Of a DNA stretch of 64,000 bases, positions 40,601 to 52,600 are shown piece after piece; the first letter of the stretch is position 1; the number at the start of each line of letters is the position of its first letter. The stretch lies in the NCBI RefSeq assembly GCF_056712565.1, contig NZ_CM160072.1. The stretch is one strand, 5' to 3'. Made by a program: the position numbers.

Positions 40601-43600
40601 AGTCCTTTCCATTCAAATGTGAAATCAATAAGTTCATCAGGGACATCGCAAACAATATGAAGACGGATTTCTTCTCTGCCGTGACTCTTTTCACTAATGG
40701 CGTAACTGTCATGTTCTGGATTATTTAATTCTTTCAGTGGAAATTTTTCCTCAAAGGCTTTATTAAGCCGCCCCTGATTTCCTTTTACAGCGAATAAATA
40801 ATCACCGCCCTGTTTTTATATCTTCTCTGCAATATCTTTCTGGCACCCCATCGCATCAGTTGTGATGATTTTTCCTTTAATATCCAGCATGTTAAGAAGT
40901 TCAGGGATAGCTGTAATTTCATTGGATTTCTCATCCGTCCTGATCTGTCCGATGACCAGACTGTGCATTGTTGAGAACGCACTAATGACATGAATCGCTC
41001 CCTTGCGGCGACTCTTGTCATAAGAATGCCGGAGTGTTTTTCCATCAATTGCGATGACGTCTTTATCATCTGAAGAATGGCAGTCACGCATCCAGTTAAT
41101 AAAGCACTCGTGAAACTTTGCAGGACTGATACAGGATACAACTCTGGCAATAGTATCGTGAACAGGAATACCATTATCAAAATCACCATATTGCTTCAAA
41201 AAATCGAGATGTGTTTCCCCAAAATCCTCTATATCTTCCCAGCCTTCTGCACCCGAAATAACGGCACAAATAGTCAACAGTAGAATATCCGATAATTTAT
41301 GTTCCACTTTCCAGGCTTGTCTGTAATCGGGGATAATAGAAATATGTTCCATCAATTTTTTAAGTTCCATTTTGTTCTCCTTAATTATGTAAGGAGTATT
41401 TGATCATGTATAAGCAATAAAAAACAGCTTTAGGTAATAAGGGATATCTCAATTTTTAAACATAAAATGCGAATTATTTAGTACAAAAAAGCAGCGTTAC
41501 GTGATCTTTCCCTGCTATATAAGGTCAATTATATTATTGTTAATGCGTTTAATAAATAGATTCATACATAGCAGCTATATGCCTCCAGTTATACATATCT
41601 TCAGCATAATTTTTTAAATCTAATACTCGACATTTAAGATTTCCAAAAGACAAACTTTCTGCTAATAAGCTAAGTTGTTCAGAATCATTAAAGTAATGAG
41701 CTAAATTGTTAGTTGTGTAACGATTAAAGTCACAATCGAAAGCAAAAATAGGAATATTAAAATGCATCGCTTCAACTAAAGAAGGGTTTGTTCCACCAGC
41801 CGAGTGTCCATGAATGTATGCAAGACAATTTTTTCTTAGTTTATAAAGCTCTTCAATATTATAGTTAGGTTCTAGTAGGGTGATATTTGGATAGTTTGAA
41901 TAATATTTTTTTAGCTGGCGTCCATACTCGCTGTTATCCCAATTACCCATAAATTTAATTTTTTTATCTGTATTAATGAAGGCATTCAGAATCATTTCTA
42001 TATTATTCTCAGGCTCTATCCTACAAAGCCCCAAATAATAACCTTCTTTTTTTTGATCATTGTCTATCGGTGTACTAAGATTAGTGGCATGATCTCCGCC
42101 ATAAGCTATAACTACACTTTTTTTCTTGTACTTATTTTCCACATAATCAGCTATTGCTTGATTATCTGAAATGATAATATCAGCTATTCTAATAGATATC
42201 GCCTCAGATATTTTAAGAAATTTCTTAGCAAACGTTCCCCATTTATTTCTACGCCATTCAAGCCCATCAATATTGACAATAATCTTTGATTTTGAAAATA
42301 GTTTATAAATTGGTAGAAATAAACAACCAGACACCCCCAATATTAAAACAACATCTGGCCTTTTGAATAAACAAATAATTAAACACATAATATCATAAAT
42401 TATGCTAGAGACGCCATTGGCATTTATCGGCAAATAGATTAATTCTGCATTTTTATAATTTTTAAATTTTTTATCATATTTTTTTGAAGAGCAAAATATC
42501 TGATATTGTATACCATCAGATTGATAATCAATTAGATTCTGAACAAGTGATTCGAACCCACCATAACAAGCAGGAACACCCACTGTGCCAACTACAGCGA
42601 CCGTCTTCATATTATTTTCTTCCATTTAAACACCTTGAGCCTAACTATTTTCGTATTAAAAATTATTGAACATACCATCACGTACAGCTTTAAAACAAAC
42701 CTTCAGTGAATTTAATTTTTCTTTCGAATATAAAATTTCAAATACAACATTCTTTGTCGCATGAAAAAAAGCATGATAACGATACTTGAAGCTATAATTT
42801 GAATGCAGCATTAAGTATATTGCATTGCGTATTTTATAAAAATTTCTGAAAGAATTATGTATTGTAACAGATCGACCAGCAAAAATTTTCTGCCCATACC
42901 CAAGTTCATGAGAAATGATGACTGATGGTGTCTGAACAATAATCATATTATTAGCTAATGCACGCCAACACCATTCTGTATCAACCCAGTCTATAAAGAG
43001 TTTTTCACAAAATGGTCCGACGACGCGCCATGCTTCACGAGACATTAACATCCCAGAAGCAATAACATGCGAGGGATAAAGATCATCGTCTACTTCACTA
43101 CATATAACTTTTGTACTCGTAAAAATATTTAGGCTGACTGACGGATGCATATAATTTGAACGATGGTCTTTAAAAAAAGGAGAAGCACAAGCAACATTTT
43201 TACCTTTTTTATTATTTTTCGTAAATGTACTCTTAAGTTTTTCAATAACATCGCTAGGAAAGCAAGTATCCTGATCTGAGAAAAATAAATAGTCAAACTC
43301 TTTTGCTTCCAGGCCCTTCTTAACACCATGGTTCTGAGCAAATGCAATGCCTTTGTTTTCCGAAAGTAAAATAATTTCAAGGTTATTAATACTGATATTT
43401 TTTATCAAATCACTATTATTTGAGCCATTATCTACAAGAATTATTCTCTCAACTTGTGGGGCTAAAGAGTTAATACATTCCGTCAATCGAATAATTTCCG
43501 GGTTGTAAGTAACAATTATAGCCAACACCTTAGCCTTACACATTAATCACTCCAAAGACCATATGATAATAGTATGTTAGATACAATAAAATTAACACTT

Positions 43601-49600: not shown

Positions 49601-52600
49601 AATTGTTGCAATGAAGTTACTTGCTTCAATAAGGCTTTGATGCGTCCCTGTATCCAACCATGCATAGCCACGCCCCATCATGGCTACAGACAAACGTCCT
49701 TGTTCCATATAAATACGGTTAATATCGGTAATTTCCAGTTCGCCACGGGCAGAAGGCTTAAGGTTTTTAGCCATTTCCACAACGTCATTGTCATAGAAAT
49801 AAAGCCCAGTAACCGCATAGTTGCTTTTTGGCTCCAGCGGTTTTTCTTCCAGGCTAATTGCCGTACCGTTATTATCAAACTCCACGACACCATAGCGTTC
49901 AGGATCATTAACGTGATAAGCAAATACCGTTGCACCGCTTTCTTTGTTAACAGCAGCTTCCATCAATTTCGGCAAGTCGTGTCCATAGAAGATATTATCG
50001 CCAAGTACGAGTGCACAATCATCACCACCAATAAAGTCTTCGCCAATAATAAACGCTTGCGCCAGGCCATCCGGACTCGGTTGTACTTTATACTGTAGAT
50101 TAAGACCCCACTGGCTCCCGTCCCCCAATAATTGTTGGAAACGCGGTGTATCCTGTGGCGTACTAATAATAAGAATATCGCGAATACCCGCTAACATAAG
50201 CGTTGAAAGCGGATAATAAATCATCGGCTTATCATAAATCGGCAGCAATTGTTTACTCACTGCCATCGTCACAGGATAAAGACGAGTGCCGGAACCACCA
50301 GCCAGAATAATACCTTTACGCGTTTTCATTTCACCATTCCTTTTAATTCATCCCGCTCTGGCATCATGAGCGAGATGCAAAAATTTGTTAAATTGCCGTA
50401 GTCGTAAATAATTCGTTGAGCATACGTTTCACGCCCACCTGCCAGTCAGGCAAGACAAGCGCAAAGTTCTGCTGAAACTTTTCTGTATTGAGGCGAGAGT
50501 TATGGGGTCGACGGGCTGGTGTGGGATAGGCCGTTGTTGGCACGGCGTTAAGTTTGTTAAGTGCAAGATTAATCCCTGCTTTGCGCGCCTCTTCAAAAAC
50601 CAGCGCAGCATAATCGTGCCAGGTTGTTGTGCCACTTGCTACCAGATGGTACAAGCCAGCGACTTCTGGTTTTTTTAATGCCACGCGAATGGCATGAGCG
50701 GTGCAATCAGCCAGCAATTCAGCACCTGTTGGTGCGCCAAACTGATCGTTTATCACAGCCAGTTCTTCGCGTTCTTTTGCCAAACGCAACATCGTTTTAG
50801 CAAAGTTATTTCCTTTACCAGCGTATACCCAGCTGGTACGGAAAATAAGATGCTTTGCGCAATGTTCTTGTAATGCCTTTTCCCCAGCTAATTTTGTTTC
50901 ACCGTAAACATTTAGCGGTGCTGTTGCATCCGTTTCCAGCCATGGCGCGTCACCACTGCCTGGGAAAACATAATCAGTAGAGTAGTGTATAACCCAGGCC
51001 CCGACTTCATTAGCAGCTTTTGCAATCGCTTCGACGCTTGTCGCGTTAAGTAATTGTGCGAAATCCGGTTCTGATTCTGCTTTATCTACTGCAGTGTGAG
51101 CAGCAGCATTAACAATAACGTCAGGACGAATTTTTTTGACGGTTTCTGCCACACCTTCGGGGTTGCTGAAATCTCCACAATAATTAGTGGAGTGAACATC
51201 AAGAGCGATCAGATTACCCAGCGGCGCCAGAGCACGCTGCAGTTCCCAACCCACCTGCCCTGTTTTGCCGAAAAGCAGGATATTCATTACTGACGGCCCT
51301 CATAGTTTTGTTCGATCCATGACTGATAAGCACCGCTTTTCACATTCTCAACCCAATTTGTATTAGCCAGATACCATTCCACCGTTTTGCGAATCCCGCT
51401 CTCAAACGTTTCCTGTGGTTTCCAGCCCAATTCGCGGCTAATTTTATCGGCATCAATTGCATAACGGCGATCATGCCCTGGGCGATCAGCAACATAAGTA
51501 ATTTGCTCACGATAAGATTTCTCTTTCGGTACAATCTCATCCAACAAATCACAAATAGTCAGCACAACATCGATGTTTTTCTTTTCGTTGTGTCCGCCAA
51601 TGTTATAAGTTTCACCCGCTTTACCTTCGGTTACGACGGTATATAACGCACGAGCATGATCCTCTACATACAACCAGTCGCGAATTTGATCCCCTTTGCC
51701 ATAAATAGGTAATGCCTTACCTTCCAGTGCATTAAGAATAACCAATGGAATAAGCTTTTCCGGGAAGTGATACGGACCATAGTTGTTCGAGCAATTAGTC
51801 ACAATGGTCGGTAAACCATACGTACGTTTCCATGCGCGAACCAAATGATCGCTGGAAGCTTTAGAAGCAGAATACGGGCTACTTGGCGCGTAGGCTGTCG
51901 TTTCCGTAAATAGCGGTAACGCTTCGTTATTATTTACTTCATCCGGATGGGGTAAGTCACCATATACTTCATCAGTAGAAATATGATGAAAGCGGAAGTT
52001 TTTTTTCTTTTCATCATCCAGACCAGACCAATAATTGCGCGCAGCTTCTAAAAGTACGTAAGTACCTACAATATTAGTTTCAATGAATGCCGCCGGGCCA
52101 GTTATTGAGCGGTCAACGTGGCTCTCAGCCGCAAGGTGCATCACCGCATCTGGCTGGTGTTGTGAAAAAATACGCGCCATCGCTTCGGCATCGCAGATAT
52201 CTGCATGCTCAAATGAATAACGCTCAGAATCAGAAACTTCAGCGAGCGATTCCAGGTTTCCGGCGTATGTTAATTTATCGACATTAACAACACTATCTTG
52301 CGTATTATTTATTATGTGACGAACAACAGCAGAACCAATAAAGCCTGCGCCACCAGTAACAAGTATCTTCACTTTTTTATTCCATATAGCCAGAGAGCAT
52401 ACTGTGAAATAGACTGCTCGAGATTTGATTAATAGAAGTATTAATGCACGCTACCGCCCCTGGCTTAACAGCTACCAGAGCACTGCGTACATTTCTACGA
52501 TGTGACGAGCGTATCCCGCTCGTGCCAAATCCGAAAAATTCAAACGCTAATTGTCTTACCAAACAGCTGTAGAAACAAGGAAAATCCTGGAAAAATTTGA

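Follow-up and report, generated by a model that had tools for sequence, protein, structure and literature searches.

A probable serogroup O2 O-antigen gene cluster between galF and gnd in Escherichia coli

Which O-antigen is specified by the gene cluster that lies between galF and gnd in a 64,000-nucleotide stretch of contig NZ_CM160072.1 (NCBI RefSeq assembly GCF_056712565.1), and can it be told apart from its near-identical relative? This stretch, taken at its full length, is referred to below as the window, and coordinates are those of the window unless another locus is named. The original prediction had placed an O-antigen cluster at 41549-52372, had read from it a unit containing L-rhamnose (Rha) and a 3-acetamido-3,6-dideoxyhexose of either galacto (Fuc3NAc) or gluco (Qui3NAc) configuration, and had noted a likeness to clusters of the O2/O50 type. 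Here the locus is read as being very probably (roughly 93%) the Wzx/Wzy-dependent O-antigen gene cluster of E. coli serogroup O2, in the O2 allelic form of the O2/O50 family. The cluster itself is already known in full, as it constitutes the well-known O2 antigen locus.

Gene content, identity and the O2 allele

Twelve uninterrupted open reading frames (ORFs), all on the minus strand and free of internal stops, fill 41549-52372 exactly, with gaps between neighbors of -14 to +68 nucleotides (nt) according to the ORF map and translation. They are transcribed in the order rmlB-rmlD-rmlA-fdtA-fdtC-fdtB-wzx-GT4-rmlC-wzy-GT2-DUF1972 GT, where GT stands for glycosyltransferase, and Pfam or NCBIfam searches supported the family assignments with E values of 1e-13 to 1e-109, except for wzx, wzy and the GT4 gene (Table 1). 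The genes, order and coordinates first proposed were borne out by this map and by the family searches, as were the four families of a dTDP-L-rhamnose pathway (rmlBDA plus a separately placed rmlC), the FdtA/FdtC/FdtB-type set for a dTDP-3-acetamido-3,6-dideoxyhexose, and the wzx, wzy and three glycosyltransferase genes of a Wzx/Wzy-dependent locus. The limits, on the other hand, stood only in part: galF (52745-53650) and gnd (35700-37106) bound the cluster, with transcription running from galF to gnd and all genes on the minus strand, and the interval between them extends past the twelve ORFs to take in two ISAs1 remnants and wekS.

The identity of the cluster is evident at the nucleotide level. 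Over its entire 10,824 bases, the cluster shows 100.0% identity to complete E. coli genomes bearing the names O2:H1 (HM670), O2:K1:H7 (the avian pathogenic E. coli strain APEC E18055) and O2:K1:H4, and to APEC BEN2908. Two of the matching strains, BEN2908 and IMT5155, are known as O2:K1:H5 from serological typing. A nucleotide search located the cluster in 131 of 5426 complete E. coli genomes. RefSeq designates the wzx product an "O2/O50 family O-antigen flippase" and the wzy product an "O2/O50 family O-antigen polymerase", and its annotation of the O2:K1:H7 strain E18055 shows an identical gene layout. Each of the nine cluster-specific proteins was found as an exact sequence in public databases, on at least 1000 contigs apiece, and some of these exact matches carry the depositors' names FdtA and FdtC, originating from published O2 entries. 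The likeness to O2/O50 clusters is confirmed by the complete identity to O2-named genomes and by the RefSeq family names, and neither a wzx/wzy pair of another serogroup nor the genes of another sugar pathway were encountered.

Within the O2/O50 family, a single codon carries the distinction. The two serogroups have a common main chain, and the D-Fuc3NAc side branch is present in O2 only; its absence from O50 is attributed to a point mutation in fdtB that changes His to Arg (Liu et al. 2020, PMC7685785). Fewer than 10 single-nucleotide polymorphisms (SNPs) separate the two clusters (Delannoy et al. 2017, PMC5293828); in the part of the published alignment that spans fdtB, column 4308 reads CAC in both O2 references and CGC in both O50 references (Delannoy et al. 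2017, PMC5293828, Table S4), and a second SNP is also said to separate the serogroups (Delannoy et al. 2017, PMC5293828). In the window, fdtB codon 137 is CAC (His), located at 48171-48169 within the motif PVHLYG, and 48158-48180 match the CAC version of the published alignment exactly. Because the window has CAC at this codon, it is assigned the O2 allele and not that of O50, and its unit is predicted to contain the amino sugar. Typing by wzx and wzy alone would return "O2/O50", whereas fdtB codon 137 resolves the window to O2.

The O2 reading weighed against its alternatives

Could the cluster nonetheless specify the O50 antigen, with a main chain of rhamnose and N-acetylglucosamine (GlcNAc), no Fuc3NAc branch and an inactive FdtB? 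The clusters of the two serogroups are more than 99% identical and are reported together by typing tools, but the discriminating codon is that of both O2 references, the FdtB protein of the window is identical to WP_001033086.1, which is present in genomes named O2, and a 61-base probe for the O50 allele found an exact match in none of the 131 cluster-carrying genomes and a single mismatch in every one of them. An O50 antigen is consequently very improbable here, and the O50 (CGC) variant seems, from these sequence matches, to be absent or very rare among complete RefSeq genomes. The amino sugar specified by the window is very probably D-Fuc3NAc (galacto), because the cluster is identical to that of O2, whose unit chemically contains D-Fuc3NAc; the assignment comes from published O2 chemistry and not from the enzyme sequences. 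For the O2 repeat unit, a mass of 828.3376 Da (C34H56N2O21) and the release of a Fuc3NAc residue upon fragmentation are reported (PMC8969423). Three Rha, one GlcNAc and one Fuc3NAc add up arithmetically to this mass, and the published residue numbers for the unit, with three Rha, a GlcNAc and an acetamido sugar, are the same (Delannoy et al. 2017, PMC5293828). The gluco alternative, D-Qui3NAc made by way of a QdtA-type isomerase, draws on the membership of FdtA and QdtA in one family (PF05523), both of them strong matches to the window protein, on the RefSeq name "FdtA/QdtA family" for its relatives, and on an aminotransferase that is also close to QdtB. When the isomerase was compared with characterized FdtA and QdtA, as the original prediction had proposed, the higher score fell to FdtA: its best solved relative is the Aneurinibacillus thermoaerophilus FdtA structure 2PA7 (146.9 bits), while QdtA (4ZU7, 128.9 bits) ranks sixth. 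Moreover, the FdtA mutant entries 2PAE and 2PAK carry changes at residues that align with His50 and His52 of the window protein, and Arg16 and His96 occupy the positions of FdtA Arg15 and His95, at which QdtA is said to carry Tyr and Arg, a difference reportedly described by Thoden and colleagues in 2015. The best solved relatives of FdtB are 5U1Z (473 bits) and QdtB (3FRK, 401 bits), and its Lys191, the Schiff-base lysine, corresponds in the alignment to the lysine that 5U21 has exchanged for alanine. By themselves the sequences suggest a modest preference for FdtA over QdtA; with the chemistry of O2 added, Qui3NAc is scarcely credible, and of the two sugars originally offered, Fuc3NAc stands and Qui3NAc falls.

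Two further alternatives accept an O2 cluster but question its product. If fdtC were a pseudogene, the full O2 unit would not be made, leaving an unacetylated Fuc3N, a unit without the side branch, or a rough phenotype. The RefSeq annotation pipeline (Prokaryotic Genome Annotation Pipeline, PGAP) indeed lists fdtC in O2 genomes as two "incomplete" acyltransferase fragments (at 14045-14419 in the comparison locus L001), and the full protein can be obtained only from a TTG start. Both fragments, however, lie in the same frame of 155 codons, which has no internal stop and whose TTG start overlaps the fdtA stop by 14 nt. FdtC aligns end to end, from residue 3 to residue 154, with the Shewanella FdtD N-acetyltransferase domain at its residues 2-153 (4MZU; E 4e-71), the first 24 residues being conserved with the crystallized protein, and O2 references defined by serology, the antigen of which has the acetylated sugar, contain an identical sequence. 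Deposited FdtC versions measure 155, 142 and 131 residues, and the exact 155-residue protein has been deposited as an "N-acetyltransferase". On the strength of the open frame, the FdtD-domain alignment and this deposit, a true pseudogene was rejected; we read the RefSeq call as a probable annotation artefact of the TTG start and not as gene decay, and we give the loss of the O2 unit by this route very little credence. It is conceivable, but unlikely, that WekS or unlinked phage gtr/oac genes modify the O2 unit further, such that the antigen differs from canonical O2. In support of such a modification, wekS is intact, conserved and positioned between the cluster and gnd, and unlinked genes commonly modify E. 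coli O-antigens (Liu et al. 2020, PMC7685785). Conversely, the mass of the O2 unit leaves no room for an extra substituent, albeit in material that was made recombinantly (PMC8969423), two decayed insertion sequence (IS) copies cut wekS off from the operon, and the recurrence of the IS and wekS module in an O10-family cluster, with wekS truncated there by IS1, argues against a serogroup-specific role. A more specific version, by analogy, has WekS still expressed and, in the periplasm, decorating the rhamnose-rich O2 polysaccharide with a substituent of the phosphoglycerol type. We consider this quite improbable, but if true, classical structural work would have overlooked the substituent, as it did the glycerol phosphate of the group A carbohydrate of streptococci.

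Several points weigh against the preferred reading of a functional O2 cluster. The O2 call for the source strain is made from sequence alone, and the "O2" labels of some matching genomes may stem from in silico typing, which is unable to tell O2 from O50. In RefSeq, fdtC appears as fragments of a pseudogene, and that this is an artefact is our judgement from the reading frame. The Pfam match of the GT4 enzyme falls just below the cut-off (28.3 vs 28.5 bits). Three transferases have to serve four linkages within the unit, and the dual role of the GT2 enzyme on which this depends is a proposal from the literature. Lastly, the exact linkages of O2 were sought in the literature and not found, so that what can be cited is limited to the composition of the unit and the location of its side branch.

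Precursors, assembly and surroundings

The functions of the precursor enzymes are taken from their named families (Liu et al. 2020, PMC7685785). RmlA and RmlB would together produce dTDP-4-keto-6-deoxy-D-glucose, which RmlC and RmlD would convert to dTDP-L-rhamnose. From the same intermediate, FdtA would generate a 3-keto sugar of galacto configuration, the His137 form of FdtB would aminate it at C3, and FdtC would complete dTDP-D-Fuc3NAc by N-acetylation. All four Rml enzymes are full length, with full profile coverage and no internal stops (Pfam 1e-75 to 8e-109). Base composition divides them, as rmlB, rmlD and rmlA (49454-52372) have a guanine-plus-cytosine (G+C) content of 44-48%, and the other genes (41549-49439), including rmlC at 36%, one of 30-37%. 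This step suggests separate histories for rmlBDA and the serogroup-specific part, and such G+C mosaics are usual in O-antigen clusters.

Table 1. Features of the O-antigen region, in order of transcription, with predicted products and supporting matches
Feature	Product or description	Length (residues)	Coordinates	Strand	Support and remarks
JUMPstart	element with ops motif GGCGGTAGCGTG		52447-52484 (ops 52447-52458)	minus	between galF and rmlB; 5' limit 52484 by eye
rmlB	dTDP-glucose 4,6-dehydratase	361	51287-52372	minus	GTG start; Pfam GDP_Man_Dehyd/Epimerase 1e-93; RefSeq rfbB, same coordinates
rmlD	dTDP-4-dehydrorhamnose reductase	299	50388-51287	minus	Pfam RmlD_sub_bind 8e-109; RefSeq rfbD
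rmlA	glucose-1-phosphate thymidylyltransferase	291	49454-50329	minus	Pfam NTP_transferase 5e-83; RefSeq rfbA
fdtA	FdtA-type cupin 3,4-ketoisomerase		49026-49439	minus	Pfam FdtA (PF05523) 1.6e-46; exact protein deposited as "FdtA"
fdtC	dTDP-D-Fuc3N N-acetyltransferase	155	48572-49039	minus	TTG start; Hexapep 1e-27
fdtB	pyridoxal phosphate (PLP)-dependent dTDP-3-keto-6-deoxyhexose 3-aminotransferase, His137	368	47473-48579	minus	DegT family 1e-107
wzx	O-unit flippase	420	46211-47473	minus	NCBIfam WzxE-like 2.7e-57; RefSeq O2/O50 family
GT4	GT4-family glycosyltransferase	349	45145-46194	minus	TTG start; Pfam Glyco_transf_4 2e-6; RefSeq "glycosyltransferase family 4 protein"
rmlC	dTDP-4-dehydrorhamnose 3,5-epimerase	185	44567-45124	minus	Pfam dTDP_sugar_isom 1e-75; RefSeq rfbC
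wzy	O-antigen polymerase	320	43536-44498	minus	Pfam EpsG 1.5e-16; RefSeq O2/O50 family
GT2	GT2-family rhamnosyltransferase	295	42656-43543	minus	Glycos_transf_2 3e-13; TIGR01556 1.9e-54
DUF1972 GT	DUF1972 + GT1 glycosyltransferase	358	41549-42625	minus	DUF1972 3.9e-32; Glycos_transf_1; NCBIfam Cps2T 3e-59
ISAs1 remnants	two tandem decayed ISAs1-family (ISEc1-like) copies		38929-41514	minus	DDE_Tnp_1 fragments; RefSeq: frameshifted or internal stop
wekS	lipoteichoic acid (LTA)-synthase-family membrane protein	542	37242-38870	minus	Pfam Sulfatase 1e-27; RefSeq "LTA synthase family protein"

Assembly of the unit would begin on GlcNAc-PP-undecaprenol (GlcNAc linked by diphosphate to undecaprenol), the product of WecA, which is encoded outside the window. 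The first L-Rha would be added by the DUF1972 enzyme, a putative beta-1,4-L-rhamnosyltransferase acting on this acceptor. The enzyme scores 200.7 bits against the model for the beta-1,4-rhamnosyltransferase Cps2T, far below that model's equivalog cut-off of 500, and its GGTNPSLVE at residue 277 resembles the GGTNPSLLE/GGTNPGLLE motifs of WchF/GacB (PMC6802508). The next two L-Rha residues would fall to the GT2 rhamnosyltransferase, which reaches 184.7 bits against the TIGR01556 rhamnosyltransferase model (cut-off 200.55) and is inferred to make alpha-L-Rha linkages, probably two of them. It has been proposed that, in O2 and O50, a single transferase forms Rha-Rha linkages of different kinds (Liu et al. 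2020, PMC7685785), and, with one enzyme serving two Rha linkages, three transferases would suffice for four linkages. By elimination, and consistent with the retaining chemistry of GT4 enzymes, the remaining transferase would be the alpha-D-Fuc3NAc transferase that adds the side branch. These putative transferase assignments agree with the retaining or inverting mode of the respective families, given the anomeric configurations of O2 reportedly established by Jansson in 1987.

Export and polymerization of the pentasaccharide would follow the usual division of labor, with Wzx flipping the unit, Wzy polymerizing it and WzzB setting the chain length. Wzx has approximately 11-12 hydrophobic segments, and its family is visible only through the NCBIfam WzxE model. 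A Wzz-family protein (wzzB) is encoded at 33162-34145, and the flippase, polymerase and chain-length regulator are thus all present in the window, whereas the gene for the ligase WaaL, like wecA, is located outside it.

Upstream of rmlB, the ops motif was found as a single exact match, with none expected by chance. JUMPstart elements with their ops motifs typically precede O-antigen operons and act as the signal for RfaH-dependent antitermination. The motif also heads the published O2/O50 alignment (Delannoy et al. 2017, PMC5293828). The remaining JUMPstart sequence, GTAGCTGTTAAGCCAGGGGCGG (52459-52484, minus strand), agrees in that alignment with AB811624 and departs from U18-41-new and GU299792 by a single T insertion and a single A/G substitution. 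The flanks (26842-37106 and 52745-59265) follow the standard E. coli arrangement, with genes of the his operon (hisIE at 32368-32979), wzzB, ugd and gnd on one side, and galF and the colanic acid genes wcaM, wcaL, wcaK and wzxC on the other. No Pfam match was obtained for wcaM (53813-55207).

The gnd end of the cluster is occupied by the IS remnants, which stand between the last glycosyltransferase gene and wekS/gnd. The two copies are direct repeats spaced by approximately 1295 nt and are 87-95% identical to each other, and each half of the interval matches single ISEc1 copies elsewhere. The adjacent wekS is an intact ORF of 32% G+C encoding N-terminal hydrophobic segments and a sulfatase-type domain. 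Many Enterobacterales encode relatives of WekS at 35-60% identity, and other E. coli have a variant that is about 88% identical. In describing the final ORF of a different cluster, Delannoy et al. (2017, PMC5293828) name a wekS of the O2 strain G1674, and we infer that the ORF of the window is this same gene. Its protein has a weak match to phosphoglycerol transferase I (1.6e-9), and its only solved relative is a Vibrio protein, 3LXQ, which is uncharacterized; a link of WekS to phosphoethanolamine (PEtN) transferases or to GacH was considered and not upheld, given this uncharacterized relative and the weakness of the transferase match. The module of ISAs1 and wekS also adjoins gnd in NZ_CP168035.1 (strain EC23HZZ201; comparison locus L004, 9135-12344), whose wzx and wzy belong to the O10 family and whose wekS is the IS1-truncated copy mentioned above. 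The module is therefore not specific to O2, and it appears to be common to several serogroups at the gnd end.

Although the cluster is perfectly conserved in some genomes, others have diverged. Nearly half of the cluster-carrying genomes (64 of 131) are only 95-99% identical overall to 41549-52372 and represent diverged sublineages, and fdtB falls into identity classes of about 99.9, 99.3, 99.1, 98.9 and 97.0%. The 99.9% class, a one-SNP variant that is common in O2 genomes, was examined as a candidate O50 allele and rejected, its SNP (nucleotide 855) being synonymous and the protein identical. In the O2:H6 strain PG20180057, FdtB has the substitutions I294V, K310Q and M363V, and wzx is annotated as frameshifted.

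Among extraintestinal and avian pathogenic E. coli, O2 ranks with the main serogroups, and O-antigen conjugate vaccines include it; its correct typing is therefore of practical value. The window yields a clean serogroup call, while knowledge of O-antigen biosynthesis is left unchanged.

Comparison with known systems

The closest counterparts of the window are the E. coli O2 reference clusters (GU299792, from strain G1674, and EU549863), with which it shares the gene set and order, the fdtB CAC (His137) allele, the JUMPstart element, and the ISAs1 remnants and wekS at the gnd end. No difference of substance was apparent, the base-by-base comparison having covered the part of these entries from fdtA to wzx. 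The E. coli O50 cluster (U18-41; KY115227, AB811624) is more than 99% identical, has its genes and their order in common with the window, and cannot be separated from O2 by typing tools through wzx/wzy. Nevertheless, its fdtB codon 137 is CGC (Arg), in contrast to the CAC (His) of the window, and the O50 antigen is without the Fuc3NAc branch.

Further afield, the FdtA/FdtB/FdtC pathway of A. thermoaerophilus, which leads to dTDP-D-Fuc3NAc, and the related QdtA/B/C pathway to dTDP-D-Qui3NAc have three enzyme families in common with the window; the A. thermoaerophilus FdtA is the nearest solved relative of the window isomerase, in which the catalytic histidines are kept. FdtC of the window, a full-length N-acetyltransferase of the left-handed beta-helix class, is of the short (155-residue) type, like the N-terminal domain of Shewanella FdtD (241 bits) and less like QdtC (96 bits). 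Finally, streptococcal GacB/WchF (Cps2T) share with the DUF1972 enzyme of the window both the DUF1972 + GT1 architecture, with DUF1972 at the N terminus and a GT-B domain at the C terminus, and a motif of the GGTNPS-L-E type. The streptococcal enzymes act on the first lipid-linked sugar, and the window enzyme would likewise do so, with GlcNAc-PP-undecaprenol as its predicted acceptor and a linkage predicted in the same manner.

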